Part shown: in pieces, positions 5,449 to 54,922 of the stretch
Numbering within the stretch: the first letter of the stretch is position 1
Layout of the letters: each line of letters opens with the position of its first letter
Source of the DNA: Candidatus Nomurabacteria bacterium
Lineage (GTDB): Bacteria > Patescibacteriota > Minisyncoccia > Phycocordibacterales > UBA9973
Length of the DNA stretch: 64,000 bases
Direction: 5' to 3'
NCBI GenBank assembly: GCA_943350875.1
Contig: CALRAL010000001.1
Span: forward strand, 68,992 to 132,991
Notes under the pieces: model-generated
Databases searched by the model: none
Seen by the model: the letters and a program-made list of their open reading frames with translations, nothing else
Told to the model about the DNA's origin: nothing
Position numbers and translations under genes: made by a program

Positions 5449-7122
5449 ATGCAAACAGAAACCAGGCAATGCAAAAAATGCAATCGAAGTTTTGTTCTAG
5501 AGCAAGACGATTTTTCTTTTTACGAAAAGATGAAAGTTCCTGTACCGAATATCTGCCCAGACTGTCGTTTTAAAATGAGGGCCATTTTTAGAAATGAACG
5601 TACTTTATATAATAGGACCTGTAATTTATGCAATCGCTCTATTATTACAATGTATAATCCGAATTCTCCTTACACTGTCTATTGTAATGACTGTTGGATT
5701 TCTGATAAATGGGATCCATATTCTTACGCTATGGATTATGATTCATCTAAATCTTTTTTTGAACAATTAAAAGAACTTATTATAAAAGTTCCAAAATCTG
5801 CCACTTATAGTAGTATTTCTGTTGGGGTGAATATCAACAGTGAATATGCTAATTTTGCAGGAGGTAATAAAGATGGGTATTTGATTTTTAATTGTGGACC
5901 AAATAATGAAAACATAGCTTATTCCCGCGGTGTAATAAAAAGTCGAGATGTTTTTGATGTTTATTATGCAGATGAAATAGAAAATACTTATGAAGGAGTT
6001 AGTGTTCATAAAAGTAATGGAATAGCTTGGGGTCAAAATGTATCCGATTGTATAGATTCACGTTTTATTTTGAATTGTTCAGGATGTCAGAATTGTTTTG
6101 GTTGTGTAAACTTAAGGCATAAATCTTATCATTTTTTTAATGAACCTCTTGAAAGAAATGAATGGTTAAAACGTGTATCAGAAATTTCTGGTAGTTTTAA
6201 AAAGACAGAAGAAATGAAAAAAAAGTTTACAGAATTCTCTCTTAAATTTCCATATCGAAGTAGTAATAACCTAAAAGTCACTAATTGTGAGGGAGATTAT
6301 ATTTTTGAATCAAAGAATTGTTATAAATGTTTTGAACTTTCTTTTTGTGAAGACATACGACATTCTTTTTCAGTAAAACGTGGTAAAGATTGTACTGATA
6401 TGATAGGTCATTGTCGCAGTTCAGAACTTCTATATAATGGAGTTGGAGTTGGGGCTGGCTCAAGGAATGTTATATGTTCATGGTGGGTTGAAAGTTCCCA
6501 AGATGTTCAATATTCATTTGCCACTCGTCAAAGTAATGATTGTGTAGGATGTGATGGTATAAAAAATGGTTCTTTTGTAATTCTAAATAAAAAATATACC
6601 AAAGAAGAATATCAAAAAATAAAAAATAATATTACAAAGGAGTTAAAAGATAAAAATATCTACGGTGATTTTTTCCCTACTGAACTTTCTTTCTTTGCTT
6701 ACAATGAAACAATTGGGCAAGATAATATGCCTATGACTAAAGAAGAAACAATCAAACAAGGTTTTCGTTGGGAAGATAATATTCAAAAAACAAAAAGAAA
6801 AGAAACCTTAAAGCCAGAGGAAATTCCAGATAATATAAGAGATGTATCAGATAATATTTTAAATGAAGTATTAGTTTGCATTAAATGTTCTAGAAATTAT
6901 CGGTTAATTAAACGCGAACTTGAATTTTACAAAAAAATGCTTATTCCTATCCCTAGAGAATGTTGGAATTGCCGTTTTACAAATCGCATAATTCGACGCG
7001 GGTCTTATAAATTCTTTGATCGTAAATGTTCAAATTGTAATAAGGATATACATACTAATTTGACGGAAAAGGTGGCACCAATAGTATATTGCGAGAAATG
7101 TTATCAGCAGGAAGTGATATAA
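5449..7122 (+). CDS. Large Cys-rich protein with tandem zinc-ribbon pairs at both termini (paralog 1 of 3)
   Basis: N-terminus CKKC...FYEKMKVPVPNICPDCR...LYNRTCNLC...VYCNDCW. C-terminus CIKC...FYKKMLIPIPRECWNCR...CSNC...IVYCEKCYQQEV. Central Cys-rich pseudo-repeats (NCSGCQNCFGCVNL...). Paralogs at 53207 and 59745. Confidence 0.8.
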   Translation: MQTETRQCKKCNRSFVLEQDDFSFYEKMKVPVPNICPDCRFKMRAIFRNERTLYNRTCNLCNRSIITMYNPNSPYTVYCNDCWISDKWDPYSYAMDYDSSKSFFEQLKELIIKVPKSATYSSISVGVNINSEYANFAGGNKDGYLIFNCGPNNENIAYSRGVIKSRDVFDVYYADEIENTYEGVSVHKSNGIAWGQNVSDCIDSRFILNCSGCQNCFGCVNLRHKSYHFFNEPLERNEWLKRVSEISGSFKKTEEMKKKFTEFSLKFPYRSSNNLKVTNCEGDYIFESKNCYKCFELSFCEDIRHSFSVKRGKDCTDMIGHCRSSELLYNGVGVGAGSRNVICSWWVESSQDVQYSFATRQSNDCVGCDGIKNGSFVILNKKYTKEEYQKIKNNITKELKDKNIYGDFFPTELSFFAYNETIGQDNMPMTKEETIKQGFRWEDNIQKTKRKETLKPEEIPDNIRDVSDNILNEVLVCIKCSRNYRLIKRELEFYKKMLIPIPRECWNCRFTNRIIRRGSYKFFDRKCSNCNKDIHTNLTEKVAPIVYCEKCYQQEVI

Positions 7123-17147: not shown

Positions 17148-17170
17148 ATGTCAAAGACCGTCTTTGACAT
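17148..17170. repeat. Left terminal hairpin palindrome of the IS200-like unit
   Basis: 11-bp arms with a 1-nt centre; the tnpA stop codon lies inside it. Confidence 0.8.
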
Positions 17171-17798
17171 CAAAAATTAGTGTTTCTTTTATGAAACTTT
17201 CTTGATCTCCAAAAGTCGATAATAATAGTTCTTTATTTATTATCGATAAATTTCTGTTATTAGCGAAATCATCATAACTATTCCACAAATGATCTGATGG
17301 ATGTTTTACAATTTTATCTTTTACTGGATTCATGTGTATATAAGTCGATGTCCACATTAATTGTGGATTATTTTCTATTAATACAGATTTGAATTTATCT
17401 TGGAATATGTGCCCAACTCGTTTGTATTTTTTATTTATATATTTTACATAACTTGTGCAAAGTTTTGAAATCAATTTTGAAACGGATATATCTCCAACTT
17501 GTTCAATAAGTAGATGAAAGTGATTAGGCATGAGACAGAAAGCATGCAGTTTAAAATTGTTTTTATTTGTTTCAGTAATCCTAATTCTAGAGTAGGGCAT
17601 TGAAGTTATTTTTTCTTTATTTAGTTCTTCTTCTGTAAATCCTAGACATAATCCAAGTCTAAAGAGAAAAGCTTTGTAATCTTGCTCGTCAAGAAATATT
17701 TTTTCCTTATTATTGCCTCTATTATAAACATGAAAAATATGTCCGGAGGCAAATTTTTTGTAATCTCTGTTATTTATAGATACAGTATAGCATGTCAA
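17151..17798 (-). CDS. IS200/IS605-family Y1 (HUH) transposase TnpA / REP-associated tyrosine transposase-like
   Basis: SGHIFHVYNRGNNKEKIF N-terminal motif, HUH motif LMPNHFHLL, and C-terminal catalytic-Tyr block YIHMNPVKDKIV...W.SY. Confidence 0.8.
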   Translation of the reverse strand: MTCYTVSINNRDYKKFASGHIFHVYNRGNNKEKIFLDEQDYKAFLFRLGLCLGFTEEELNKEKITSMPYSRIRITETNKNNFKLHAFCLMPNHFHLLIEQVGDISVSKLISKLCTSYVKYINKKYKRVGHIFQDKFKSVLIENNPQLMWTSTYIHMNPVKDKIVKHPSDHLWNSYDDFANNRNLSIINKELLLSTFGDQESFIKETLIFDVKDGL

Positions 17799-17868: not shown

Positions 17869-18393
17869 ATGTTTACCGAGCCAGTAAAAAATCTAAAAGC
17901 TTTTGGTCTGCGTGACGATATGGTCGTGGCGGATTTGGGAGCAGGGACTGGATTTTATACTATTCCGGCTGGGTTTATGGTGCCTCGAGGCAAAGTCTAT
18001 GCTGTCGAAATACAGAAAGATTATTTAGTGACTCTAAAGAATAAAGTGGTGGAGGCAAATTTACATAATGTGGAGATTTTTTGGGGCAATATTGAAAAAC
18101 TCGGGGGCACAAAAATAAGGGACAAAGTAGTAGATGCAGTCATCGCTTCTAACATACTTTTTCAAGTCGTAGATAAAGAAAAATTTATCGAAGAAATAAA
18201 TAGAATTTTAAAACCAGGTGGCAGAGTTCTACTTATAGATTGGTCTTCTTGGATATCTATAGTGAGTGCTGGTTCTAAAAAAAGTGTTTCAAAAGACGAA
18301 GCTAGAAAAATGTTTGAAGAAAAGGGTTTTATTTTTGAGCGAGAAATTAACACTGGGGCGCATCACTATGGTATAATATTTAGTAAGTTGTAA
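17869..18393 (+). CDS. Class I SAM-dependent methyltransferase
   Basis: Motif I VADLGAGTGFYT; ILKPGGRVLLID. Confidence 0.75.
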   Translation: MFTEPVKNLKAFGLRDDMVVADLGAGTGFYTIPAGFMVPRGKVYAVEIQKDYLVTLKNKVVEANLHNVEIFWGNIEKLGGTKIRDKVVDAVIASNILFQVVDKEKFIEEINRILKPGGRVLLIDWSSWISIVSAGSKKSVSKDEARKMFEEKGFIFEREINTGAHHYGIIFSKL

Positions 18394-18399
18394 AGTAAA

Positions 18400-19689
18400 A
18401 TGCGAGCAAATTTTCAAATAATCGTCGTTGTAGTCTTTGTTGCTTTAGCCGGTTTTGGCTTGATGGTTTTTTCTGGGCTGATAAAGATAGGTGGTGATAG
18501 TAAGACTAGCGCTTCAGGTACTGTGGTGTTGTGGGGAACTATCAAAAATGAAGCCATTGCACCGATACTGGAAACTTTTAATCAAGTGAATCAAACTTTC
18601 GTGGTGAAATACGTGCAGAAATATCCAGAGACTTTTGACCAAGATTTATTAGAAGCTTTGGCTTCAGGAGTGGGCCCGGATATGTTTTTCTTGCCGGATA
18701 ATCTAGTATTAAAATACTCCAACAAAATATACGCTATACCATATGCTAGCTATCCGCTTGCTTCTTTTAAGAATGTATTTGCCGGAGCAGGGGAGGTGTT
18801 TCTGACTTCCAAAGGTATCTTAGCCCTTCCTATGGCTATCGATCCGTTGGTGATGTATTACAACAGGAGCATGCTTGATGCCAACAACATCATTTATCCA
18901 CCTACGACTTGGAGTGATTTTGTGTCTTTAGTGCCGACTTTGACTAAAAAGGATGAGGGAAATAAAATCATAAAAAGTGGCGCTGCTTTAGGACAATTTA
19001 CTAATGTCACTCATGCCAAAGATATTATCTCTACTTTATTTATGCAAGGAGGGAATAGCATCGTAGCTGAAAAAAGTGGCGCTTTTTATTCTACTCTAGC
19101 AGATTCTCTCACTTCTAATTTAGGCTCTATTTTGAAATTCTATACTGACTTCACTGACCCGACGAAGAACGTGTATTCCTGGAACAGGTCTTTCCCTAGT
19201 TCCACTGATGCATTTTCATCTTCTGACTTGGCGTTTTACTTTGGGTTTGCAAGTGAGCTTTCATCTCTGATAAATAAGAATCCGAATCAAAATTTCTTAG
19301 CTTCGCCTTTCCCTCAGATCAAGAACGCATCCTTCAAATTAACTGGGGCCCATGTGCTGGGGCTAGTAATCTCTGCTTTTTCCAAGAATCCTAGTACTGC
19401 TCTCACAGCGGCAGGGCTCATGTCGAATGGAGATTTTGCTTCCAAACTTACTAATGCGCTCTTTGTGCCTCCAGCTAGGCGTGATTTACTTGGAGCCAAG
19501 CTTACAGATTCATTTTTCCCTGTTTTTTATAATTCTGCCTTGTATGCCAAGAGTTGGCTTGATCCATCACCAAAAGATTCAGATGATATATTCCGTAGTA
19601 TGATCGACAAAGTATTATCAAATAGCTTTTCGCCTGATGATGCTGTCAAAGATGCCAGTTCTAAGCTTGGGCTTTTATTAATTAAATAA
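18400..19689 (+). CDS. Membrane-anchored extracellular solute-binding-protein-like (family 1 SBP-like)
   Basis: N-terminal TM, then VVLWGTIKNE...ALASGVGPDMFFLPDN, the sort of pattern seen in MalE-type SBPs. Confidence 0.4.
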   Translation: MRANFQIIVVVVFVALAGFGLMVFSGLIKIGGDSKTSASGTVVLWGTIKNEAIAPILETFNQVNQTFVVKYVQKYPETFDQDLLEALASGVGPDMFFLPDNLVLKYSNKIYAIPYASYPLASFKNVFAGAGEVFLTSKGILALPMAIDPLVMYYNRSMLDANNIIYPPTTWSDFVSLVPTLTKKDEGNKIIKSGAALGQFTNVTHAKDIISTLFMQGGNSIVAEKSGAFYSTLADSLTSNLGSILKFYTDFTDPTKNVYSWNRSFPSSTDAFSSSDLAFYFGFASELSSLINKNPNQNFLASPFPQIKNASFKLTGAHVLGLVISAFSKNPSTALTAAGLMSNGDFASKLTNALFVPPARRDLLGAKLTDSFFPVFYNSALYAKSWLDPSPKDSDDIFRSMIDKVLSNSFSPDDAVKDASSKLGLLLIK

Positions 19690-19693
19690 AATT

Positions 19694-20704
19694 ATGCAAA
19701 AAAAACTGCCAAAATTATTTATTTTTGTTCTAATATTACAAACTATTTTTTTTACCAGGGTTTTTGCGATTCAAACTGAGAATCCTGCCACTCCAGCTTT
19801 GATTGTAAATACTTTTGGCTATTCGGTATTGGGCACGAATTCTTTTAGGCTCGAAGGTACTTATGATGGCAATGTAAATAAAAGAGAGCTCACATATTAT
19901 TTTGAATATGAGACACAAAAGCAAGGATTGCGTGGAGATGGTCTGCATACATACATAGAGAATTCAAAAACGATTCCCATAGTTCAACATCTTTGTTCTA
20001 TAAGTGTGATATGTGACAAGGGACATATTACAGATCATTTTGAGACCACTATCAATCTACTTGATGGCAAGACTTATCGTTTTAGAGCAGTAGCGTATTT
20101 TAATGGTCACGGAGCAGAGCAAAAGTTCTACGGGCAGTGGCTGATATTGACCACTAACCAAGCATTTTTCGGTGGCAATGGCGTCTTATTAACTCCTCCC
20201 TATACTGTAAACAGCAATAACACAGCTGTGCCTTTTACAGGTATAAATTCAACAAATAATAATCCTACTTATAATCCCCTAAATACTGGTCGTTTAAATC
20301 CTACGATTGAATTTAATCCATATCTAGGCGGTACAGGAAATACAAATTCAGATACACCAGTCAAAGGTAATGGTTTGGTGCATTGTGGCAAATCTAATGT
20401 CGACAGTGCGGGTAATCCTGTCACTGCAGATACAGCAGAATGTGGCTTTAATGACATATTTGTGCTCATCAATAACATCTTACATTTTATACTTTTTATC
20501 ATAGCTATACCCATCTCTGCTATTATGTTTGCTTATGCAGGATTTCTGTATCTGACCTCGGGCGGAGGAGAGCAAGTCAGCAAAGCCAAGGGGATATTTA
20601 GCGGGGTGGCGACAGGGCTTGCTATAGCGGCGGGAGCTTGGCTCATAATACATAGCATATTATTACTTTTAGGATATCAAGGTGAATGGTTTGGCTTACA
20701 GTAA
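19694..20704 (+). CDS. Secreted protein with a C-terminal VirB2/TrbC-like two-helix pilin-type domain
   Basis: Signal peptide. The C-terminus (IPISAIMFAYAGFLYLTSGGGEQVSKAKGIFSGVATGLAIAAGAWLII) has the same two-TM plus charged-loop plan as the four small genes downstream. Confidence 0.45.
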   Translation: MQKKLPKLFIFVLILQTIFFTRVFAIQTENPATPALIVNTFGYSVLGTNSFRLEGTYDGNVNKRELTYYFEYETQKQGLRGDGLHTYIENSKTIPIVQHLCSISVICDKGHITDHFETTINLLDGKTYRFRAVAYFNGHGAEQKFYGQWLILTTNQAFFGGNGVLLTPPYTVNSNNTAVPFTGINSTNNNPTYNPLNTGRLNPTIEFNPYLGGTGNTNSDTPVKGNGLVHCGKSNVDSAGNPVTADTAECGFNDIFVLINNILHFILFIIAIPISAIMFAYAGFLYLTSGGGEQVSKAKGIFSGVATGLAIAAGAWLIIHSILLLLGYQGEWFGLQ

Positions 20705-20782
20705 ACCCCACCTGGCCTCCCCTTGTCAGGGGAGGAAAAATAGGTAGTCCCCCTGACAAGGGGGATTTAGGGGGTTAGATTT
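20705..20782. repeat. GC-rich nested-hairpin element, family C, intergenic
   Basis: ctccccttgtcaggggag ... tccccctgacaaggggga ... ttagggggttag; a second copy at 36786-36858 is ~85% identical. Confidence 0.8.
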
Positions 20783-20816
20783 TGCTAAAAATTTTAGTTA
20801 GTATTATAATTAAAGT

Positions 20817-21179
20817 ATGAATTTTATCAAAAATCTTTTCAAAAGAATAAACATAATCGCCCTCATCCTTTTTTTGCCGCTTTTTTCTGTTTCTGCAGAA
20901 TGTGCTGATAAAACAAAAGTTTGTAATCCAATAGGAGCTACTGATATAAATGGATTGATCAAAGACATCTTGATCGGAGTGATAAAGATCAGCATCCCTG
21001 TCATAGCGCTGGCTGTCATATATTCTGGCTTTCTCTTTGTGTCTGCCAGAGGTAGTACGGAAACTTTAGATAAAGCGAAAAAGACTTTGCTTTATACCCT
21101 CATCGGCTCGGCTTTACTACTAGGATCTTGGGCCATAGCGCAACTTATATCTAACACAGTATTAGCGTTACAAATATGA
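20817..21179 (+). CDS. VirB2/TrbC-like pilin-type small membrane protein 1
   Basis: 120 aa: signal peptide, Cys pair, TM1, charged loop (SARGSTETLDKAKK), TM2. Confidence 0.45.
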   Translation: MNFIKNLFKRINIIALILFLPLFSVSAECADKTKVCNPIGATDINGLIKDILIGVIKISIPVIALAVIYSGFLFVSARGSTETLDKAKKTLLYTLIGSALLLGSWAIAQLISNTVLALQI

Positions 21180-21610
21180 AAAAACTAATAAAAACAAAAT
21201 ATCTAGGTTTGACTGCAGGGTTACTTTTAATAATGCCAAATGTTTCCTTTGCAGCTGGTTGCACTCTTCCAGATAATAGTCAGACGAAGATAGCTGATGT
21301 TTTAGATTATGGCACTTGCTTGATCAGTAGCTCTGTTATACCGCTCATTATGTCTTTGGCTACAGCTTCATTTATCTGGGGAGTGGTGCAATTTGTTATA
21401 AATGGCGCTGAGGATACAGAAAAGCGGGAAAAGGGTAAGATGTTTATGATCTGGGGAATATTAGCCTTGACGGTGATGGTGGGCGTGTGGGGGCTGGTGT
21501 CTATCGTAGGGCATACTTTTGGGATAACAAATGTGATCCCGCAAACTGTAAATAATAGTAATTCCGGAACACCTCCACATGTATTGTATGGAGGCGATAA
21601 TGGTGCATAG
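21176..21610 (+). CDS. VirB2/TrbC-like pilin-type small membrane protein 2
   Basis: 144 aa with the same plan; shared KxxMIWGIxxLTVMVGVWGLVSIVGHTFGI block. Confidence 0.45.
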   Translation: MKKLIKTKYLGLTAGLLLIMPNVSFAAGCTLPDNSQTKIADVLDYGTCLISSSVIPLIMSLATASFIWGVVQFVINGAEDTEKREKGKMFMIWGILALTVMVGVWGLVSIVGHTFGITNVIPQTVNNSNSGTPPHVLYGGDNGA

Positions 21611-21673
21611 ATAATTAACACTGTCTATACACTTGCTTTGTTATTTGTGATATAATAGATTATTATTATAAAT

Positions 21674-21706
21674 TTCCGCCAGAGGCGGATCAGCCTTTGG
21701 CTGAAT
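21674..21706 (+). repeat. Two-hairpin GC-rich motif, family D (CCGCC-AGA-GGCGG / CAGCC-TTT-GGCTG)
   Basis: ttccgccagaggcggatcagcctttggctgaa. The copy at 51961-51992 differs only in its loop nucleotides. Confidence 0.7.
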
Positions 21707-21755
21707 TATTAAAATAAAGAGCGTAGCGATTATATTTAAATAAATTTTTTATACT

Positions 21756-21788
21756 CACTTCGTTCGTTAAAAATCAATTATGAAAAAG
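21756..21788 (+). promoter_or_regulatory. Conserved leader/translation-initiation motif TTCGTTCGTTAAAAATCAATT-ATG
   Basis: cacttcgttcgttaaaaatcaattatgaaaaag. A near-identical 24/26 copy precedes typA at 33850-33880. Confidence 0.5.
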
Positions 21789-22175
21789 AAATTAATGTTT
21801 TTGTCGGGAGCTGGTCTAGCATTGGCTCCAATGCTTGCTTTTGCTCAAGCCAATCAGCCACAATGTGGTACACCAGGTTCAGATATAGGTTATATTATTT
21901 GTAAAATTGGTGCTTTACTAAATACAGTTATTCCTATATTGATAACTCTTGGAGTAATTTATTTCATTTGGGGAGTTATTAGCTATGTGGTAGCAGGAGA
22001 TGAAGAGGCTAAAACAGCTGGTAGAGATAAAATGATTTTTGGTATCATTGGTCTAGTAGTGATCATTGGTATGTGGGGCCTTGTAGGTATAGTTTCTAGA
22101 ACTTTTGGGATAGGTCAAGGTGGTGGTAATAATATTATCATTCCTTGTGTTCCTTATGAAGGTCATTCTTGTTAA
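21780..22175 (+). CDS. VirB2/TrbC-like pilin-type small membrane protein 3
   Basis: 131 aa; same SP / Cys / TM-loop-TM plan (DEEAKTAGRDKMIFGIIGLVVIIGMWGLVGIVSRTFGI). Confidence 0.45.
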   Translation: MKKKLMFLSGAGLALAPMLAFAQANQPQCGTPGSDIGYIICKIGALLNTVIPILITLGVIYFIWGVISYVVAGDEEAKTAGRDKMIFGIIGLVVIIGMWGLVGIVSRTFGIGQGGGNNIIIPCVPYEGHSC

Positions 22176-22193
22176 TTAATTCAATCATATAGG

Positions 22194-22538
22194 ATGAATT
22201 TATTCTCTACAAATATAGCTTATGCGAGCGTGGATTCTTTTGTGGCGAATGTTGATCGACTGATCATAAATCCACTTATCATCTTTCTCTTTGCTTTGGC
22301 TTTAGCTTTCTTCCTCTACGGAGTATTTGAATTTATCTTAAATCAAGACAATGACGAGAAGAAAACGCAAGGCAAAAGCCATATGATCTGGGGGATAATA
22401 GGACTGACTATCATGTTTGGAGTGTGGACTATTCTGAATATACTTTTAAGGACTTTTAATATAACAGACATAAATCCAAAGAAAGGAGAAGTAAAATTGA
22501 ATGATTATAGTCCAACTTTAAATGAACTAAAGAATTAA
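22194..22538 (+). CDS. VirB2/TrbC-like pilin-type small membrane protein 4 (no signal peptide)
   Basis: 114 aa; TM-loop-TM with KSHMIWGIIGLTIMFGVWTILNILLRTFNI. Confidence 0.4.
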   Translation: MNLFSTNIAYASVDSFVANVDRLIINPLIIFLFALALAFFLYGVFEFILNQDNDEKKTQGKSHMIWGIIGLTIMFGVWTILNILLRTFNITDINPKKGEVKLNDYSPTLNELKN

Positions 22539-22544
22539 AAAATA

Positions 22545-22577
22545 AAAACCCGAGTATCTCGGGTTTTTATTTTTTGT
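22545..22577. terminator. Bidirectional rho-independent terminator
   Basis: aaaaacccgagtatctcgggtttttatttttt between convergent genes. Confidence 0.85.
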
Positions 22578-22587
22578 AGTATTTATT

Positions 22588-23394
22588 TTAAGCGTGTTTG
22601 AGAGGCGTATGTTTATTTTCTTCTCTTACGAGTAATTTTCTAATTAGAATTACGAACAATAGGATCAAGATAAACAATAGTAACCATTGAATCAAACTCG
22701 AAGGCATAAAGCTATTTGTACCAAATATGGCGTTCGCAGCTAAGCTCCCAAAAGTGTTTGGGGTAGTTGTTTTAGCCACAGCCTTTGTTGTAGTTGTTTT
22801 TTTGACAGAAGCAGTATATACAGGCGGAGTCTTGGTGATACTTCCATTTGCTATAACATTATGGCTAACATTGAAATAAGCTGCATTTGACAAACCATTA
22901 CTCTGATACAAATTCCCATTATAAACTGTGATGAGGTAATCTCCCGAGACAGAAAAGTCGTTTGAATTTAATTGCATAAGTAGGGTAGCAGAGTTTATGT
23001 AAGTTGTCATACGGCTAGAGCTATTCCAACGAGCAACAGATGAAGCAGTGAAATTGTTCCCGTAGATTGTGACAGTTAGCCCAGTATTGCCTGAAGCCGT
23101 AGCATTGGGAGTGATAGAATATATCACTGGAGTAGGGATATTTTGATTGTTGTAATAGCCGTTATTATAATAACCGTTATTGTAGTTATAATTACTATTA
23201 TTATATCCATCACAAGGTTCATTAGTATCTCCGAAATAATAGTGCCAAGCACCATAAGTTTGACAAGCACTAGCCTTTGCAGGCATTAAGAATAACACGG
23301 CTAAAGCCAAAATAGCTGATAATATAAGGGTATTTATGACTATATTTCTTTTTGTTTTATTGTTTATTTTACTCATATAAGGATAGTATAGCAT
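22588..23394 (-). CDS. Asn/Tyr-rich cell-surface protein with a TIG/IPT-like domain and a C-terminal TM anchor
   Basis: N-terminal signal/TM, low-complexity NYNNGYYNNGYYNN, VIYSITPNATASG...TVYNGN, and a C-terminal hydrophobic anchor with basic tail. Confidence 0.5.
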   Translation of the reverse strand: MLYYPYMSKINNKTKRNIVINTLILSAILALAVLFLMPAKASACQTYGAWHYYFGDTNEPCDGYNNSNYNYNNGYYNNGYYNNQNIPTPVIYSITPNATASGNTGLTVTIYGNNFTASSVARWNSSSRMTTYINSATLLMQLNSNDFSVSGDYLITVYNGNLYQSNGLSNAAYFNVSHNVIANGSITKTPPVYTASVKKTTTTKAVAKTTTPNTFGSLAANAIFGTNSFMPSSLIQWLLLFILILLFVILIRKLLVREENKHTPLKHA

Positions 23395-23416
23395 AATCCA
23401 ATATAAAAGTCAAGTG

Positions 23417-23498
23417 TGCCGTGGGAGGGACTCGAACCCTCAAGTCTTGCGACACTAGTTCCTAAGACTAGCGCGTGTACCAGTTTCGCCACCACGGC
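23417..23498 (-). tRNA. tRNA-Leu (anticodon TAG), long variable arm, no encoded CCA
   Basis: Reverse complement GCCGTGGTGGCGAAACTGGTA...CTAGTCTTAGGAACTAG...GGTTCGAGTCCCTCCCACGGCA; acceptor GCCGTGG/CCACGGC. Confidence 0.8.
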
Positions 23499-23599
23499 AT
23501 ATTTTTTTTGTGGTCAGGAATAGTTTTTTACTAAAAACTTCCCCGACCAAGGCTCGTGCCGTCGCACTCCGCCTCGCAAAAAGTACTTATGTACTTTTG

Positions 23600-23672
23600 T
23601 GCGCCCTGAAGGGATCGAACCTTCGACCTTATCCTTAAGAGGGATCTGCTCTACCAGCTGAGCTAAGGGCGC
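23600..23672 (-). tRNA. tRNA-Lys (anticodon CTT)
   Basis: Reverse complement GCGCCCTTAGCTCAGCTGGTAGAGCAGATCCCTCTTAAGGATAAGGTCGAAGGTTCGATCCCTTCAGGGCGCA. Confidence 0.8.
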
Positions 23673-23740
23673 ATGCTATTCAATTTATCATAAAAATTAA
23701 AATTTTGAAAGTTTTATAAAAAATGTTAGATTATAGGTTA

Positions 23741-23815
23741 TGGCCTGGTAGCCAAGTAGTAAGGCATTCCTCTGCAAAAGGAATATACGTGGGTGCGATT
23801 CCCACCCAGGCCTCC
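23741..23815 (+). tRNA. tRNA-Cys (anticodon GCA), encoded CCA
   Basis: GGCCTGGTAGCCAAGTAGTAAGGCATTCCTCTGCAAAAGGAATATACGTGGGTGCGATTCCCACCCAGGCCTCCA. Confidence 0.8.
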
Positions 23816-23830
23816 AGGTAGTAAATAATT

Positions 23831-23912
23831 GCCCGGATGGCGGAACTGGTATACGCGCACGACTTAAAATCGTGTCTCGCAAGGGATGTGGGTTCGATTC
23901 CCACTCCGGGCA
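23831..23912 (+). tRNA. tRNA-Leu (anticodon TAA), long variable arm
   Basis: GCCCGGATGGCGGAACTGGTA...CACGACTTAAAATCGTG...GGTTCGATTCCCACTCCGGGCA. Confidence 0.8.
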
Positions 23913-23917
23913 CAAAT

Positions 23918-36785: not shown

Positions 36786-36858
36786 TAACCCCTCCAAACC
36801 TCCCCTTGTCAGGGGAGACAAAAAAGTCCCCCTGATAAGGGGGATTAGGGGGTTGGAG
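36786..36858. repeat. GC-rich nested-hairpin element, family C, second copy
   Basis: cctccccttgtcaggggag...gtccccctgataaggggga...ttagggggttggag. Confidence 0.8.
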
Positions 36859-44409: not shown

Positions 44410-45810
44410 ATGCCTGATACAGACATCAAAAATACAGAGGCACAAACTCTCTATAATCAAGAAATATATAAATATGGACGAGAGCTTGCTTCTGTCAACA
44501 AGACACTTACTCTTTTACGAGAGTTGTACAAAATAACTCTGCTTTCACTTGATCCTGTTGCGGTAGCGACACAAGTTTCAATATTAATGCGCGATAGCCT
44601 ACATCTTGAAATGGTGGGACTTTTTCTTTTTACTCACAAAGAAGACACATTTTTGCCGCTTGCTTTCGCAAAATCTGATCGTTTAATTTCAGTTTTACGT
44701 AAACTTGATTTTTTGTTTAGTGATATAACAATTACAGGGGTTACAAAACGTTCTTTTTTCAACAGTCTTTTTGAAGGAGAGTTTGTGGTCACAAGAAATA
44801 TTTCTGATATTTGGGGCGGGCTTGTAAATGATAATGATTTAAAAACTATTACAGAATCAGCCAATTTAAAAACAACTATATTATATCCATTACTTACAGA
44901 AGAAAAAATTATTGGTGTGATCCTTTTGAACTATAATTCGTCTTATGATCAGATTTCCGCATCTGAAAAGGATTCTTTAAAATCCTTTTCAGATGCTATA
45001 GCTGTTTCACTTGATAAGTCATATATGTACAAAGAGCTTACGATGGCCAATAAAAATCTGATGGCTGTCAACAAAGAAATGGAATTAGCCAATAAACAAT
45101 TAAAAACAGTTGACGAAACAAAATCTAGTATTTTGTCTTTCGCTCAACATTATTTACAGAATCCAATAGAAAATATTGTTATGGCATCTTCTATGCTTGC
45201 TGATGGATCATTTGGAGATAAAATTGAAGATATAAAAAAGGCTTCGGTACGAATGTTTGAATCTGCCAGGCATTTATCTCTGACAGTAAAAATGTGGTTG
45301 AAAGCCCTTGATTTCGAAGAAAATAGAGTCGAATACAAAATAGCAGATTTAGATTTATATAACCTAATATCTCAAATAGTAAAAGATTGGACTTTAATTG
45401 CGAATGATAGAGGTATTGCTTTTTCCTTTGAGACTGATAATCATCCACCATATACTATCAAAGCAGATCAAACATGGATACATGATGTAATAATAAACTT
45501 AATAGATAATGCTTTTAAAATGACTGAAAAAGGATTTATTAAGTTAAAATTAGAGAAAATTGGTATTGAAAAAGTAAGGTTTTCAATTACTGATTCAGGA
45601 GTGGGTATCGATATGGAAACATTATCAAAACTATTCCAGAAATTTGAACGTGGACATGAGGGTTGGCGAAACAATGTTGAAGGCACAGGATTAGGATTAT
45701 ATATTTCTAAGAAGATTGTGGAAGAAGGCCATCATGGCAAAATCTGGGCAGAATCTGAGGGGCATGGCAAAGGAGCCACTTTTTATGTTGAGCTTCCAAT
45801 TGTGTTATAA
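44410..45810 (+). CDS. Cytoplasmic GAF-domain sensor histidine kinase; no response regulator adjacent
   Basis: HATPase_c: GTGLGLYISKKIVEEGHHGKIWAESEGHGKGATFYVELP. Confidence 0.8.
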   Translation: MPDTDIKNTEAQTLYNQEIYKYGRELASVNKTLTLLRELYKITLLSLDPVAVATQVSILMRDSLHLEMVGLFLFTHKEDTFLPLAFAKSDRLISVLRKLDFLFSDITITGVTKRSFFNSLFEGEFVVTRNISDIWGGLVNDNDLKTITESANLKTTILYPLLTEEKIIGVILLNYNSSYDQISASEKDSLKSFSDAIAVSLDKSYMYKELTMANKNLMAVNKEMELANKQLKTVDETKSSILSFAQHYLQNPIENIVMASSMLADGSFGDKIEDIKKASVRMFESARHLSLTVKMWLKALDFEENRVEYKIADLDLYNLISQIVKDWTLIANDRGIAFSFETDNHPPYTIKADQTWIHDVIINLIDNAFKMTEKGFIKLKLEKIGIEKVRFSITDSGVGIDMETLSKLFQKFERGHEGWRNNVEGTGLGLYISKKIVEEGHHGKIWAESEGHGKGATFYVELPIVL

Positions 45811-45817
45811 TTAAGTT

Positions 45818-46990
45818 ATGAATTTTTTTGGAAAGTCTAAAGAAAAAGATAAATTAATGGCTGTTTTTGACATAGGGTCTTTTTCTGTTGGTGGTGCTCT
45901 TTTTTATAAGACAAAATCTGGTGTACCAAGGATAGTTTTTTCAGTTCGTGAATTTATAAATCTTGAGAAGGAATTTATCCCTGATAATTTTTTTAATCTT
46001 ACTCTAAAATCGCTCAGCATTGTAGCTAGCAAATTGCACAAATCCGGGTTAGGAGCTCCAGACAAGTTCTTTTGTGTGCTTTCTTCACCTTGGTATGAGT
46101 CTGAAATTAGAACCATAAATCTAAAGAAAAATGTTCCTTTTGTTTTCAATATGAAATTAGCTAACAGTATGATAGAAAAAGGAATAACTTTATTTAAGGA
46201 AGAGTGTGCCAAAAAGAATGAAAAAGAAAACAGCAATATGATTCCAATAGAGCTAAAGAGTATGAAAACGACGCTCAATGGCTACACAGTCTCTAATTTA
46301 TTTGATCAAAAGGCAAAAGAAGTTGAAATGAGTGTTTTCGTTTCCTTAAGTCATGAGCAAATTTTAAAAAGGATAGAAGACACCCTAAAGAAACACTTTC
46401 TCTTTGAGAATCTAAAGTTTTCTTCTTTCACAATGGCTTCTTTTACTGTAGCACGTGACATGTTTATGAGTCATGAGGACTTTTTCTTGATTAATTTAGG
46501 AGGAGAGATAACTGACATTTCAATGGTTAAAAAAGATATTTTAAAAGAATCCATTTCTTTCCCTGTTGGTCATAATTTTATTATTCGTGGTGTCGCAAAG
46601 ACTTTGAATTGTAGTTTAAGCGAAGCAGAATCACTTATATCACTTTACAAAGAAGGACATATGGCGGAGTCTGCTTTAAAGGAATTTGATCCTGTTATAG
46701 ATAAATTTAAAAAAGAATGGTTGCAACATTTTCAGAATTCTCTAGCAAATATTTCAAATGATATATCTATACCAGCAACCATTTTCATAACGGCAGATTT
46801 GAATTTTTCAGAATTTTTCTGTCAAATTATAAAATCAGAAGAATTTAGTCAGCACACAATGACTGAATCAGAATTCAAGGTTGTGTTTTTAGGCACTCAA
46901 GCTCTTCATGGCATAGCCATAGAAGAAAATATTGCTCGTGATCCATTTATTACCATAGAATCTGTTTACATTAATCGTTTTCTCAACTAA
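45818..46990 (+). CDS. Actin-fold ATPase-like protein (PilM/FtsA-like), tentative
   Basis: MAVFDIGSFSVGGALF (phosphate-1-like) and INLGGEITDISMV (phosphate-2-like). Confidence 0.4.
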   Translation: MNFFGKSKEKDKLMAVFDIGSFSVGGALFYKTKSGVPRIVFSVREFINLEKEFIPDNFFNLTLKSLSIVASKLHKSGLGAPDKFFCVLSSPWYESEIRTINLKKNVPFVFNMKLANSMIEKGITLFKEECAKKNEKENSNMIPIELKSMKTTLNGYTVSNLFDQKAKEVEMSVFVSLSHEQILKRIEDTLKKHFLFENLKFSSFTMASFTVARDMFMSHEDFFLINLGGEITDISMVKKDILKESISFPVGHNFIIRGVAKTLNCSLSEAESLISLYKEGHMAESALKEFDPVIDKFKKEWLQHFQNSLANISNDISIPATIFITADLNFSEFFCQIIKSEEFSQHTMTESEFKVVFLGTQALHGIAIEENIARDPFITIESVYINRFLN

Positions 46991-47001
46991 AATATAAAGA
47001 G

Positions 47002-48246
47002 ATGTCAAAAAACTTACTTCAAGACGTTATAAAAATAAAAAGAATTACTAGAAAACCAATCAAAGAAGAAGAGATTGAAGAAATTAAAGTGGCTTACAAA
47101 GAACCCAAAAAGGGTGGCTTTAAATATAGACTTTGGATTTTAGCTTTTATTTCAACTGGAGTTTTACTTTTTGCGCTTTCTTTTTTATTTTCTCAAGCAA
47201 AAATAATTATAAACCCCAAAATACAAAATCTGCCCCTAAATCAGAATATTTCTGCTGTTAAGGATTCTACTGCTGATAATTTGTCTTTTGACTTGGTTGC
47301 AATCTCTGGAGATGAATCTAAAAATATAGAAGGTAGCAAAGAAAAAAATGTATCAGAAAAGGCAAAAGGCACCATACTTTTCTACAATGCTTTTAGTTAT
47401 ACTCCGCAAGTATTGGCTGTAGATAGCAGGATTGAAGGTTCTAATGGCAAAATTTACAAAATCGCAAAAAAAATAAGCATCCCTGGCATGACAAAAGGAG
47501 GCACTCCTGGGAAGTTCGAAGTGGGTGTGTATGCATCTCTTGCAGGTGAATCTTACAATAGCGCTCCACTTGATTTCAAAGTTTTAGGTTTTAAAGGTAC
47601 TGCAAAATATAGTAAAATCTATGCCAGATCAGAAAGCAGTATAACAGGCGGGATCAAAGGTGTTTTCCATCAGGTCTCTGATACTGACAAAATATTCGCG
47701 GTGAATGATTTGAAAAATATTTTAAAAGCAAAACTTCTGAAAAAAGTCACAGAGCAGATACCCGAAGGCTTCATTCTCTTTAAGGATGCAGTTTTTCTGG
47801 ATATAAACAATGATGATGTTAAATCTTTTTCTAAAGATACTTTGATCCCTGTATCTGTGAAAGGGACTTTGTATGGCTTTCTTTTTGATGAAAAAAAGCT
47901 TACAAAGAATATAGCTCAAGCGATTGTAGATAAATATGACGGGAGCGATGTATATGTACAAAATATAAAAGATCTAAAGTTTTCTCTTCTAGATCAAGAA
48001 AGTACTTCATTTAAAGATGTAAAGAATATAGATTTTAATTTATCGGGTACTCCTAAGATAGTTTGGAAAATAGATGAAAATAAGTTTATAAATGATATAT
48101 TAGGTAAGAGTAAAAAAGATTTTGATACGATACTCTCTTCTTATGTGAGTATAGACTCTGCGTCCTTATCTATTAGCCCTTTTTGGAAGAATTATTTTCC
48201 CGAAAAAGCACAAAGTATAAAAGTGACCATAAATTACCCACAATAA
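47002..48246 (+). CDS. Bitopic membrane protein (hypothetical)
   Basis: Cytoplasmic N-terminus, single TM, large extracytoplasmic domain. Confidence 0.45.
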   Translation: MSKNLLQDVIKIKRITRKPIKEEEIEEIKVAYKEPKKGGFKYRLWILAFISTGVLLFALSFLFSQAKIIINPKIQNLPLNQNISAVKDSTADNLSFDLVAISGDESKNIEGSKEKNVSEKAKGTILFYNAFSYTPQVLAVDSRIEGSNGKIYKIAKKISIPGMTKGGTPGKFEVGVYASLAGESYNSAPLDFKVLGFKGTAKYSKIYARSESSITGGIKGVFHQVSDTDKIFAVNDLKNILKAKLLKKVTEQIPEGFILFKDAVFLDINNDDVKSFSKDTLIPVSVKGTLYGFLFDEKKLTKNIAQAIVDKYDGSDVYVQNIKDLKFSLLDQESTSFKDVKNIDFNLSGTPKIVWKIDENKFINDILGKSKKDFDTILSSYVSIDSASLSISPFWKNYFPEKAQSIKVTINYPQ

Positions 48247-52599: not shown

Positions 52600-53238
52600 A
52601 TGCAACAAGATGAACCTGCCCGCAATGCTTTCAGCACAGCTGATGCAGGCGGGGAAATTAAAAAAGAGGAACAATTACCCGAAGAAAGCCCAGATTCCGA
52701 GGTTGTAGAGTTTGAATTCAATGAAGACGGGGAAGAGGATCTGAAAAAGACTTTAAAGAAGCTTCGGGCTGATTTGAAGGCTTGTAAAGCTGAAAAGGCA
52801 GAGTATTTGACCGGCTGGCAGAAAGAGCGAGCTGATTTTGTTAATTATAAAAAAGAGGAAGACGACAGGAAAACCATGTTTTCAGAATCAGTACGAGAGC
52901 GAATGCTCACTCGCTTTTTAAATGTGATGGATAGCTTCAATATGGCATTCCAAAACAAAGAAGCTTGGGAAAAAGTAGATGAGAACTGGCGTAAAGGTGT
53001 AGAATATATTCACAGCCAGTTCAACACTGTTTTTGAAGAATATGGAGTAAAAGAGATAGGTGAAGTGGGGGAGAGTTTTGATCCAAATATTCACCAGCCG
53101 GTAGAAATGATAAAAACCGACCAGAAAGATTCTGATCACAAAGTGGCTGTAGTTATCCAGAAAGGGTATAAACTTGGCGAGCGTGTTATCCGTCCGGCGA
53201 GAGTGAATGTTTATGAATATCATGAACAAAGAGAATAA
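52600..53238 (+). CDS. grpE: Nucleotide exchange factor GrpE (the N-terminus is built from a family A repeat)
   Basis: GrpE coiled-coil plus C-terminal beta domain; N-terminus MQQDEPARNAFSTADAGGEI. Confidence 0.85.
   Translation: MQQDEPARNAFSTADAGGEIKKEEQLPEESPDSEVVEFEFNEDGEEDLKKTLKKLRADLKACKAEKAEYLTGWQKERADFVNYKKEEDDRKTMFSESVRERMLTRFLNVMDSFNMAFQNKEAWEKVDENWRKGVEYIHSQFNTVFEEYGVKEIGEVGESFDPNIHQPVEMIKTDQKDSDHKVAVVIQKGYKLGERVIRPARVNVYEYHEQRE
52615..52653 (+). repeat. Family A GC-rich palindromic element at the grpE 5' end
   Basis: cctgcccgcaatgctttcagcacagctgatgcaggcgggg. Confidence 0.8.
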
Positions 53239-54922
53239 AACTTGTCAAAACTGTAAAAAAGATTTCACAATAGAACCTGATGATTTTTCATTTTATGAAA
53301 AAATAAAAGTCCCTCCACCGACTTTTTGTCCAGAATGTAGATTTCAACGTAGGTATGCTTGGAGAAATGAAATTACACTCTATCGAAGACCATGTGATTT
53401 GTGTGGAAAAAGTTCTGTTACAATTTACTCTCCAAAAAAATCTTATAAAGTATATTGTCCTAATTGTTGGTGGGGGGATGGATGGGATGCGAAGGAATCT
53501 TTTCAAGATTTTGACTTTTCACGTCCGTTTTTTGAACAATTTCAAGAACTTCAATTTAAAATTCCAAGAATAGCTCTTTTAACCAAAAATAGTGTTAATT
53601 CAGAATACACTAATCATTCAGGGGATAATAAAAATTGTTATATGTGTGTTTCTACTTTTTATTCTGAAAATATAATGTACTCAAATAATATTTGGGAAAA
53701 AGGGCAGGATTTATGTGATTGTACAATGGTGATAAAAAATGGAGTTTTGTCTTACGAATGTATAGATTCTTCTGATATTTATAATTGTCAGTTTTGTATA
53801 CTTTTAAAAAATTGTACTGATTGTTTTTATTGCTATGACTTGCATAATTGTCAAAATTGTTTTTTATCTTTTAATTTAAGAAACAAAAATTATATGATTT
53901 TAAATCAACAATATTCTAAAGAAGAATATTTTAAGAAAATTAAAAATTTTAATCTAAATTCCAATAATTCAAGACAAAATCTTTATAAGCAATTTTTAGA
54001 TTTAATGAAAAATAAAGCATTGCATAAATTTGCTATTATTGAGAAATCGGTAAATTCTTTTGGAAATATGCTTTATAATTCAAAAAACGCTAATCAGGTT
54101 TTTGACTCAGACCATGTAGAAGATACCAAATACGGCATAATACTACCTGGTGTCCAAAATTCGATGGATGTTTGCCATGTTGGTTTTAATTGTGAACTTA
54201 CCTATGAAAGTCATGCTATTGTAAGATCATCTCGTGTTTTATTTTCTCATTTATCCTATGATAATAATGATATTCAGTATTGTGATTCGTGTCATTATAG
54301 TGATAATTTGTTTGGTTGTTGTGGAATAAAGAAAGGAAGTTATATGATTTTTAATAAAAAATATTCCAAAGAAGAATATCTAAAGTTAAAAGAAAAAATA
54401 ATTGAACACATGAAAAGAACAGGAGAGTATGGAAATTTCTTTCCACCCAAACTTTCACCATTTGGCTACAATGAAAGCCAAGCTCAAGTTTATTTACCAA
54501 TGGCAAAAGAAAAAGCTTTATCTTTTGGTTTTAATTGGGAAGATGATATGCCCGGAACCCACGGAAAAGAAACTACGGATTCAAAAAATATATCGGATAA
54601 TATTTTTGAAGTTTTAGATTCCATAACTAATGAAATATTAAAATGTGAAGATTGTGGTAAAAATTACAATATAATTCTAGCAGAATTACAATTTTATAAA
54701 AATGAAAATATTCCTATTCCACATTTTTGTTACAAATGTCGTTATAAAAAAAGAATAGCATTAAGATTACCAAGAAAACTTTGGCACAGGTCTTGTATGT
54801 GTGATAAAATTGGTCATTTTCATGGAGATGATAAATGCAATGTAGAATTTGAGACGAGTTATGCTCCAGAAAGGCCAGAAATAGTGTATTGTGAAAAATG
54901 TTATCAGCAAGAGATTTATTAA
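53207..54922 (+). CDS. Large Cys-rich protein with tandem zinc-ribbon pairs at both termini (paralog 2 of 3); the start probably lies at ATG 53213-53219 and overlaps the grpE stop
   Basis: CQNCKKDFTIEPDDFSFYEKIKVPPPTFCPECRFQRR...LYRRPCDLC...VYCPNCWWGDGWD. C-terminus CEDC...FYKNENIPIPHFCYKCR...YAPERPEIVYCEKCYQQEIY. Confidence 0.8.
   Translation: MFMNIMNKENKTCQNCKKDFTIEPDDFSFYEKIKVPPPTFCPECRFQRRYAWRNEITLYRRPCDLCGKSSVTIYSPKKSYKVYCPNCWWGDGWDAKESFQDFDFSRPFFEQFQELQFKIPRIALLTKNSVNSEYTNHSGDNKNCYMCVSTFYSENIMYSNNIWEKGQDLCDCTMVIKNGVLSYECIDSSDIYNCQFCILLKNCTDCFYCYDLHNCQNCFLSFNLRNKNYMILNQQYSKEEYFKKIKNFNLNSNNSRQNLYKQFLDLMKNKALHKFAIIEKSVNSFGNMLYNSKNANQVFDSDHVEDTKYGIILPGVQNSMDVCHVGFNCELTYESHAIVRSSRVLFSHLSYDNNDIQYCDSCHYSDNLFGCCGIKKGSYMIFNKKYSKEEYLKLKEKIIEHMKRTGEYGNFFPPKLSPFGYNESQAQVYLPMAKEKALSFGFNWEDDMPGTHGKETTDSKNISDNIFEVLDSITNEILKCEDCGKNYNIILAELQFYKNENIPIPHFCYKCRYKKRIALRLPRKLWHRSCMCDKIGHFHGDDKCNVEFETSYAPERPEIVYCEKCYQQEIY

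Follow-up and report, generated by a model that had tools for sequence, protein, structure and literature searches.

A conserved five-slot set of VirB2/TrbC-type pilin genes, apart from virB4, in a Nomurabacteria housekeeping block

What could be built by a run of genes for small two-helix membrane proteins that resemble the pilins of type IV secretion systems (T4SSs), yet lie among housekeeping genes and away from virB4? The question is raised by a stretch of 64,000 nucleotides (the window) from Candidatus Nomurabacteria bacterium (GenBank assembly GCA_943350875.1, contig CALRAL010000001.1, positions 68,992 to 132,991). A sequence-only reading had taken four consecutive small open reading frames (ORFs), together with the C-terminus of a 336-aa protein encoded upstream of them, for pilins of the VirB2/TrbC type. 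The four ORFs lie where that reading placed them, all on the + strand, and the 336-aa protein does end in a pilin module (Pfam PF18895, E=4e-5, residues 255-319). The interval 19694-22538 (+) holds five paralogous pilin-like modules, which we refer to as slots 1 to 5 (TM, transmembrane segment):

19694-20704, + strand: slot 1, 336 aa; signal peptide, beta-sandwich, linker, Cys pair and C-terminal pilin module
20817-21179, + strand: slot 2, 120-aa TrbC/VirB2-like pilin; signal peptide, TM1, charged loop, TM2
21176-21610, + strand: slot 3, the variable middle slot, 144-aa pilin; conserved Cys pair, variable C-terminal tail
21780-22175, + strand: slot 4, 131-aa pilin; AFA/QA signal peptide, Cys29/Cys41
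22194-22538, + strand: slot 5, 114-aa pilin; no cleavable signal peptide or Cys pair

The paralogy of the five modules is far beyond chance. In pairwise phmmer comparisons the proteins of slots 3, 4 and 5 match one another with E values of 1e-16 to 1e-21, the C-terminus of slot 1 matches the slot 2 protein with E=4e-10, and matches between these two subtypes reach 1e-5 to 1e-7; phmmer detected the module in no other ORF of the window. Identity between slots is 18-40%, and the slot 3 gene starts within the end of the slot 2 gene, overlapping it by 4 nt. When the four small proteins are aligned with the slot 1 C-terminus, a common core of TM1, charged loop and TM2 emerges; hydropathy profiles show a hydrophobic N-terminal segment and two TM segments, and AlphaFold2 models of slots 1 and 4 contain a helical hairpin (hairpin pLDDT ~75-85). 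The shared plan proposed earlier therefore stands as far as this core, but the signal peptide and Cys pair that it included are missing from slot 5. Likewise, the proposed core motif (MIWGI...WGLV...TFGI) is present in slots 3, 4 and 5 and not in slot 2 or the C-terminus of slot 1, which form a second subtype with motifs of their own (IYSGFLFV.ARG / MFAYAGFL); signal peptide, Cys pair and core motif all set the two subtypes apart. The Cys pairs are kept in orthologues of the slot 1, 3 and 4 types, whereas that of slot 2 is not. As read from translations and hydropathy, slots 1 to 4 have signal peptides that run from a basic N-terminus through a hydrophobic core to an AxA-type site (VFA/I, VSA/E, SFA/A and AFA/Q, respectively, the slash marking the cut).

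All five proteins match PF18895 (T4SS_pilin), with E values from 6e-9 to 2e-4, and two of them exceed its gathering score of 26.6 bits: slot 5 (36.2 bits, E=6e-9) and slot 3 (27.1 bits). Comparison with PF04956 (TrbC/VirB2; cut-off 27.9 bits), a check that the sequence-only reading had called for, aligned slot 2 over 98 of the 98 model positions at 27.6 bits, 0.3 below the cut-off, and returned no match for the other four slots. Among slot 2 orthologues (E<1e-3), 41 of 41 match PF18895 (best 5.5e-12) and 40 of 41 match PF04956 (best 9e-9), and UniRef labels one of them 'TrbC/VirB2 family protein'. The VirB2/TrbC-type reading is thus supported by PF18895 on all five proteins and by PF04956 over the full length of slot 2. 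The four small ORFs also gave weak matches to NF045849 ('pilin-like conjugal transfer protein', E 6e-8 to 2e-4), all under the 40-bit family cut-off. A search for homologues of the pilins yielded 1974; all those shown carry PF18895 except one annotated with PF04956, those shown with a taxon name are all Patescibacteria (Nomurabacteria/Paceibacterota), and some are named 'pilin' by NCBI. A tblastn search of 72,556 plasmids with slot 2 returned one insignificant match, so slot 2 has no close plasmid-borne relatives there. With five consecutive genes, the locus qualifies as a pilin array in the sense of PMC12102498 (at least two PF04956/PF18895 genes, in tandem or with one gene between them, in a Patescibacteria genome and with low identity between paralogues). 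In the family at large, a full HMMER scan yielded 48,232 cluster representatives, some of them chains with up to 11 modules, and many members (among P0148-P0296) are 'polypilins', single chains with 2-11 tandem modules. P0151 (820 aa), P0199 (1147 aa) and P0228 (1382 aa) are examples, and P0151 has eight clear repeats of a TM1-GGNEE-loop-TM2 unit. We found no mention of such fusions in the available parts of the papers on patescibacterial pilins.

We then asked how the locus is kept in relatives. A profile of slot 4 orthologues, applied to one genome per species, found 261 relatives, and the best 80 of these plus one found earlier gave 81 loci for analysis, all from Nomurabacteria/Paceibacterota. 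The array layout is identical in 73 of the 81 (the complete arrays, from at least 73 species): the first gene is of the slot 1 type, the second of the slot 2 type, the penultimate of the slot 4 type and the last of the slot 5 type. The middle slot is occupied by one or two variable genes, 45 of 94 of which encode fused two-module proteins (frequently 200-285 aa), and a complete array has 5-7 modules. Gene order is the same at every locus: gyrA, (Y1 transposase), methyltransferase, a solute-binding protein (SBP, ~430 aa), pilins, ..., TIG homologue, rbfA, IF2, DUF4446, NifS, ..., ClpB. Identity to the window proteins within a slot is 51-63% across species, compared with 61-64% for the methyltransferase, SBP and NifS of the same loci (methyltransferase 64%, NifS 61%), 84% for gyrA and 36% for the TIG protein. 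Conservation peaks in TM1-loop-TM2 and the Cys pairs; the signal peptides, the start of the mature chain and the C-terminal tails are the least conserved parts. Gene junctions in the relatives are 5-20 nt long, except for a median of ~100-120 nt before the slot 4 gene. By these comparisons the slots are old, conserved paralogues, and the check on paralogue divergence suggested earlier gave no sign of recent duplication or of gene conversion between slots. Recent tandem amplification was rejected, and cargo of a mobile element was rejected because of the core, syntenic context. Since the slots are both conserved and distinct, a heteromeric assembly fits them better than recent antigenic variation.

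Slot 1 differs from the others in its size. Its AlphaFold2 model (mean pLDDT 65) has a beta-sandwich at residues ~37-153, similar to fn3/Ig-like domains (Foldseek matches to 7cg5 and 1ujt, E ~6e-4), a disordered N/T/P-rich linker (183-229) and the two hairpin helices (252-288 and 292-325). Its orthologues range from 122 to 966 aa, with the C-terminal module kept and the N-terminus variable, and homologues at other loci bear fn3, PF16656 or lytic transglycosylase domains. Such transglycosylases are a VirB1 activity of T4SSs, and these fusions therefore provide a link to T4SSs. The module is fused to a PF01464 or PF06737 lytic transglycosylase in P0143, P0146, P0147 and L087 502-1392; by its domains, this fusion would in effect be a VirB1-like enzyme on a VirB2-like anchor.

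Slot 4 is modelled as a signal-peptide helix followed by a hairpin (37-71 and 75-108); when the window protein is aligned with 15 orthologues, column identity averages 64% and neither Cys varies. Its gene is preceded by the one long junction of the array:

21611-21779, + strand: intergenic leader of slot 4, 169 nt; extended -10-like TGATATAAT and two hairpins

A promoter-like site lies within this leader at 21638-21666, and another upstream of slot 2 at 20782-20810. The length of the slot 4 leader is conserved in relatives (~100-170 nt; L005-L085 compared), in most of which a TATAAT box is followed by a 'ATTATTAG...AAGGTCG' motif. The window leader has no AGGTCG and contains instead the hairpins TCCGCCAGAGGCGGA and TCAGCCTTTGGCTGA; a 'GAGCGTAGCGA...TATACTCACTTCGTTCG' element is common to the window, L012 and L040. 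Judged from these letters, the leader may be regulatory or may be a small inserted element. Rfam searches of the intergenic regions, this leader included, returned only tRNAs and sub-threshold matches at the terminator described below. As for slot 5, its ORF begins 18 nt past the preceding stop, which leaves no room for a signal peptide, and its short N-terminus (MNLFSTNIAYASVDSF) is kept in orthologues, whose median identity is 62-63%.

If these are T4SS pilins, where is the secretion system? The sequence-only reading had noted neither VirB4 nor VirB6 in the window and a single translocase-type ATPase, which proved correct for the ORFs scanned (the scan left out ~20 ORFs of at least 110 aa, mostly at 42.5-56 kb and many of ribosomal-protein size). 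Among the window ORFs scanned, and in the 7 kb upstream and 10 kb downstream, no VirB4 or other mating-pair-formation gene accompanies the array. The ATPase is as follows:

61521-63581, + strand: soluble TrwB/VirD4-like ATPase of the type IV coupling protein (T4CP) type; PF10412, PF01935, PF12696, PF23477; treble-clef zinc finger

It has no TM segment, and 39 kb separate it from the array; outside the window, 3.5 kb downstream, lies another copy (526 aa). The link to a T4SS comes mainly from the literature and from relatives. Table S1 of PMC12102498 lists as VirB4-positive six of six genomes with the syntenic locus (L012, L017, L024, L046, L058 and L082). In these relatives a secretion ATPase is thus present, contrary to the absence that had been named earlier as refuting the pilin reading. 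For one of the six, GCA_000999465.1 (L058), Table S3 of the same paper gives VirB3-TrsD-VirB4-x-VirB2 at genes 634-638, three VirB2/PrgF matches at genes 126-129 described as 'not near VirB4', and two t4cp2 genes four genes apart, also not near virB4. Genes 126-129 are probably the equivalent of this array, although the accession match (KKT06807/09/10) could not be confirmed, and the t4cp2 pair matches the two soluble VirD4-like ATPases of the window region.

We think it fairly probable that the locus is the pilin set of a patescibacterial T4SS, with five subunits of the VirB2/TrbC superfamily forming a heteromeric pilus-like tube or conduit. Each protein would enter the cytoplasmic membrane as a helical hairpin, with its termini outside and the short charged loop in the cytoplasm, by means of a cleavable Sec signal peptide in slots 1 to 4 and without one in slot 5. 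A VirB4-TrsD-VirB3(-VirB6) machine, with its genes at another site of the genome, would then pull the hairpins out of the membrane, and these would be stacked into a pilus-like tube or an envelope-spanning conduit whose exterior would display the disulphide-stapled N-terminal segments and the variable C-terminal tails. Orthology is conserved slot by slot, and the tube or conduit is therefore most likely a heteromer of major and minor subunits; slot 4, with its own conserved promoter-bearing leader, is a candidate for the major one. In slot 1 the pilin module may serve as the anchor of a lineage-variable ectodomain (fn3-like here) for contact with the host cell or the cell wall. Of the filament or attachment locus imagined earlier, the pilin family has thus held, and formation of a pilus is what we infer from it.

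Several observations weigh against this interpretation. Three of the five proteins fall just under the PF18895 gathering score (slot 4, 26.3 bits; slot 1, 24.0; slot 2, 21.8, E=2e-4). Sequence and profile searches of the Protein Data Bank (PDB) with slot 2 and with the slot 2 and slot 4 orthogroups gave chance matches to G-protein-coupled receptors only and no solved pilin. A Foldseek search of the PDB with the slot 4 model had no match with E<0.3 and no pilin in the top 50 of 269, a test that discriminates little because a two-helix hairpin (pLDDT 69) is too simple. We also compared the orthogroups by hhalign with six annotated VirB2/TrbC plasmid proteins recovered with a VirB2 query: slot 2 aligned weakly (P=0.0075, probability 5%), with TM1-loop-TM2 in the same register over 59 columns, and the alignment of slot 4 was limited to the signal peptide. 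VirB4, VirB6, VirB3 and TrsD were not detected in the scanned ORFs of the window or in the flanks (7 kb upstream, 10 kb downstream). The family commonly has 2-11 modules covalently fused in one chain, an unusual arrangement for subunits extracted one by one. Finally, no pilus has been observed on any patescibacterium by a T4SS-specific method, and the papers speak of the pilus as a possibility. Membership of PF18895 is thus solid, homology to classical VirB2 depends on the Pfam TrbC model, and a pilus would be a further step.

The genes on either side of the array bear on its function:

17869-18393, + strand: SAM-dependent methyltransferase (Pfam Methyltransf_31/11/25); opens the tight co-directional run into the array
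18400-19689, + strand: orphan membrane-anchored SBP, 429 aa (PF13416 E=5e-17, PF01547 E=1e-14)
22588-23394, - strand: TIG protein, 268 aa; N-terminal signal/anchor, N/Y-rich stretch, IPT/TIG domain, T-rich linker, C-terminal TM and basic tail

The methyltransferase gene stops 6 nt ahead of the SBP gene (median gap 7 nt in 75 related loci), and the SBP gene, whose product has an N-terminal hydrophobic anchor as read from its translation, stops 4 nt before slot 1. The SBP lies directly 5' of slot 1 in 75 loci, with a median gap of 5 nt, and also in the more distant L086. Its orthologues are 63-68% identical, a homologue search yielded close orthologues only, and no ABC permease or ATPase for it was found among the window ORFs scanned. 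On the other side of the array, the surface protein described earlier as TIG-like and encoded on the opposite strand was borne out (PF01833 E=1.5e-7, 31.7 bits against a cut-off of 20.9). It also matches the NF058597 CoaZ repeat (67.4 bits against 30) and has TM segments at 18-36 and 238-256. In relatives a median of 1755 nt separates the last pilin gene from the TIG homologue, which is 36% identical; the direct adjacency is particular to this genome, and we therefore regard the TIG gene as a neighbour and not as a conserved partner.

How else could the five slots be read? The proteins may remain in the membrane, as a T4SS-associated ring or channel of a monoderm translocon with no extracellular pilus, as has been proposed for PrgF and for proteins of the Mbov_0395 type. 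This would agree with the report that Gram-positive T4SSs are mostly without pili (PMC10633639), with best NCBIfam matches to the 'pilin-like conjugal transfer protein' of the integrative and conjugative elements (ICEs) of mycoplasmas, with a FATA_PrgF score in a relative for one protein of what is probably the equivalent array, and with chains of up to 11 fused modules, which would be a ready-made polytopic membrane oligomer. The stapled N-terminal segments, variable tails and large slot 1 ectodomains suggest exposed surfaces instead, and the full-length TrbC/VirB2 alignment ties slot 2 to true pilins; both features are nevertheless compatible with a membrane-resident role too, a role that we consider unlikely but keep in view. 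The paralogues could also be interchangeable variants of one pilin that serve antigenic or host-range variation and are kept for adaptation to different hosts, as has been suggested for the VirB2 arrays of Bartonella and Anaplasma; PMC12102498 offers this explanation for Patescibacteria. Their identity is low (18-40%), their exposed N- and C-terminal segments vary, both the number of genes in the middle slot and their fusion differ between relatives, and slot 5 of one strain variant has a mosaic patch of 115 nt. Yet four slots are strictly orthologous by position in 73 of 73 complete arrays, and per-slot identity (51-63%) is about that of housekeeping neighbours (methyltransferase 64%, NifS 61%), which fits fixed, distinct roles. 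Together with two subtypes that differ in signal peptide, Cys pair and core motif, and with no sign of recent duplication or gene conversion, this makes interchangeable variants improbable.

The constant company of the SBP brings up a T4SS-independent system for uptake or sensing, with the two-helix proteins as its membrane part. The SBP always adjoins slot 1 upstream (median gap 5 nt, 75 loci) and is highly conserved, the methyltransferase-SBP-slot 1 unit is kept in L086 although the rest of the array is broken up there, and no ABC permease or ATPase lies nearby among the ORFs scanned. However, adjacency alone proves little when these genomes are collinear over all 20 kb from gyrA to ClpB, no transporter made of VirB2-like proteins is known, and the family adjoins virB4 elsewhere; we hold such a system to be very doubtful. 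A bolder combination of the two ideas, in which the five-slot set of Nomurabacteria-like Paceibacteria, co-transcribed with the strongly conserved orphan SBP, would form a T4SS-dependent conduit, heteromeric by necessity, through which material is taken up from the host, with the SBP capturing a host-derived solute at the conduit and slot 1 selecting the host by a lineage-specific ectodomain, is a long shot; if true, it would be an import organelle built from conjugation parts, so far only a speculation in the field. Last, small hydrophobic proteins, in a window that has a PilM/FtsA-like gene elsewhere, might be type IV pilus (T4P) pilins or holin-like lysis proteins, but leaders of the Sec type with AxA sites, and two TM helices in place of one helix with a globular head, make this hardly credible. 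T4P pilins were rejected because none of the five N-termini has a G/F(M)xxxE prepilin motif and the models are two-helix hairpins. Holins, named earlier as an unrelated family to which the proteins might belong, were rejected because there was no PHROG or holin match (E<=0.01) and the context is of housekeeping and not phage genes in at least 73 species. The preferred reading thus stays that of a heteromeric T4SS pilin set, at the strength given above.

Pilin arrays of Patescibacteria have been published between 2023 and 2025 (PMC10633639, Wang et al. 2023; PMC12102498, Quinonero-Coronel et al. 2025). According to PMC12102498, 1,948 VirB4-positive Patescibacteria assemblies have VirB2-like pilins (PF18895/PF04956), near virB4 in 1,135 and away from it in ~40%, and 441 arrays contain 2-11 pilin genes with a mean identity of 25%. 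A series of pilins in the T4SS cluster of Southlakia epibionticum ML1 (SEML1_0006-0019) is essential (PMC10633639, PMC12857230), and in the words of a review from 2025, a pilus would be an 'intriguing possibility' for these monoderms (PMC12857230). The array described here is like the published ones in phylum, families, chromosomal location and divergent two-helix tandem sets (25% identity there, 18-40% here), but unlike those in virB4 clusters it lies in a gyrA...IF2 housekeeping block. The five-slot orthology, the variable slot 1 ectodomain and the SBP neighbour found no mention in the available parts of PMC12102498 and PMC10633639. The feature is real, but belongs to a kind already described for the phylum, and what the comparisons above appear to add, modestly, is a conserved five-slot architecture unlinked to virB4 in Paceibacteria.

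Among better known systems, VirB2 of the Agrobacterium T-pilus and TrbC of RP4 share the order of signal peptide, helix, short charged loop and helix, with ~70-100 residues in the mature protein. The VirB2/TrbC genes recovered for comparison adjoin virB1, virB3 or virB4, whereas this array does not, and in place of one major pilin there are five different subunits, in a monoderm host and with conserved extracytoplasmic Cys pairs. Bartonella and Anaplasma phagocytophilum also have tandem chromosomal virB2 paralogues in a host-dependent bacterium (PMC12102498); the role proposed for those arrays is antigenic or host-range variation, while every slot of this array has conserved orthologues across at least 73 species, which argues for fixed and distinct roles. 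The Mbov_0395 family (mycoplasma ICE, NF045849) and PrgF (of the Gram-positive MPF-FATA class) are likewise small two-TM proteins of monoderm T4SSs but, unlike this array, single-copy parts of mobile conjugation modules.

Two further elements lie between the genes of the locus:

20719-20763, strand not assigned: inverted pair of GC-rich hairpins, CCCCTTGTCAGGGG and its reverse complement, between slots 1 and 2
22536-22576, strand not assigned: terminator-like hairpin, bidirectional and intrinsic; 19-pair stem, T-runs on both strands; separates the array from the TIG gene

The CCCCTTGTCAGGGG hairpin has four matches in the window against 0.07 expected, all intergenic, with a second pair at 36802-36842. 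From their sequence and placement these are putative REP/BIME-like elements, and the pair at 20719-20763 is possibly also a terminator. Genes for Y1_Tnp (IS200-like) transposases are found near the hairpins (window 17151-17798, - strand, and L094 4684-5352), and a Y1 gene occupies the gyrA/methyltransferase junction in about a quarter of related loci; hairpins and Y1 genes together look like REP/BIME elements with a RAYT-type transposase in a genome of the candidate phyla radiation (CPR). A contig of a co-occurring strain (L002) is identical to the window in slots 2 to 4, and differs in slot 5 by 23 substitutions within a 115-nt patch (22355-22469, the loop-proximal end and the TM2/C-terminal part) and in the TIG gene by 5 substitutions (22942-22984). 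This pattern suggests either recombination with a diverged allele or a strain-chimeric assembly; short contigs of other assemblies end where the array begins or stops. Four tRNA genes separate the TIG gene from rbfA (23416-23913; Leu and Lys on the - strand, Cys and Leu on the + strand), and in relatives the interval from the pilin array to the tRNAs varies by one to three extra minus-strand genes.

The rest of the window is an ordinary CPR chromosome, with SecA, Mur ligases, gyrA, IF2, ClpB, DnaK, RpoA and AlaRS. In the region of window 61521-63581 and L001 12231-17162, the two T4CP-like ATPases enclose genes for an EcoRI-type methylase (split), a protein of GmrSD/HNH type and a PemK toxin, by this content a small defence/toxin islet. 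We also observed five paralogous Cys-rich proteins of ~560-575 aa without a Pfam match (window 5449-7122, 53207-54922 and 59745-61469; L001 17205-18899 and 18958-20679), which share the motifs CxxCKKxFxIExxDFxFYEKIKVPxPTxCPxCR at the N-terminus and YAPERPEIVYCEKCYQQExY at the C-terminus. Since three of the five lie immediately beside the two ATPases, ATPase and zinc-ribbon protein may form a conserved module. Further, genes for a histidine kinase (44410-45810), an FtsA/PilM-like protein (45818-46990) and a protein of 414 aa without a Pfam match (47002-48246) succeed one another; from their sequences these genes may be part of a cluster for T4P assembly.

The field's open question is what the T4SS and the pilins of Patescibacteria do, what they move and whether a pilus exists, for a system that is essential in the one species tested (PMC11665869, PMC12857230). 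The locus does not answer it, but lends itself well to comparison, since its pilin set lies apart from virB4, is fixed in a core block and keeps five conserved, distinct slots in at least 73 species. It also names targets, with slot 4 as a candidate major subunit, slot 1 as the candidate display subunit and the SBP as a possible partner.

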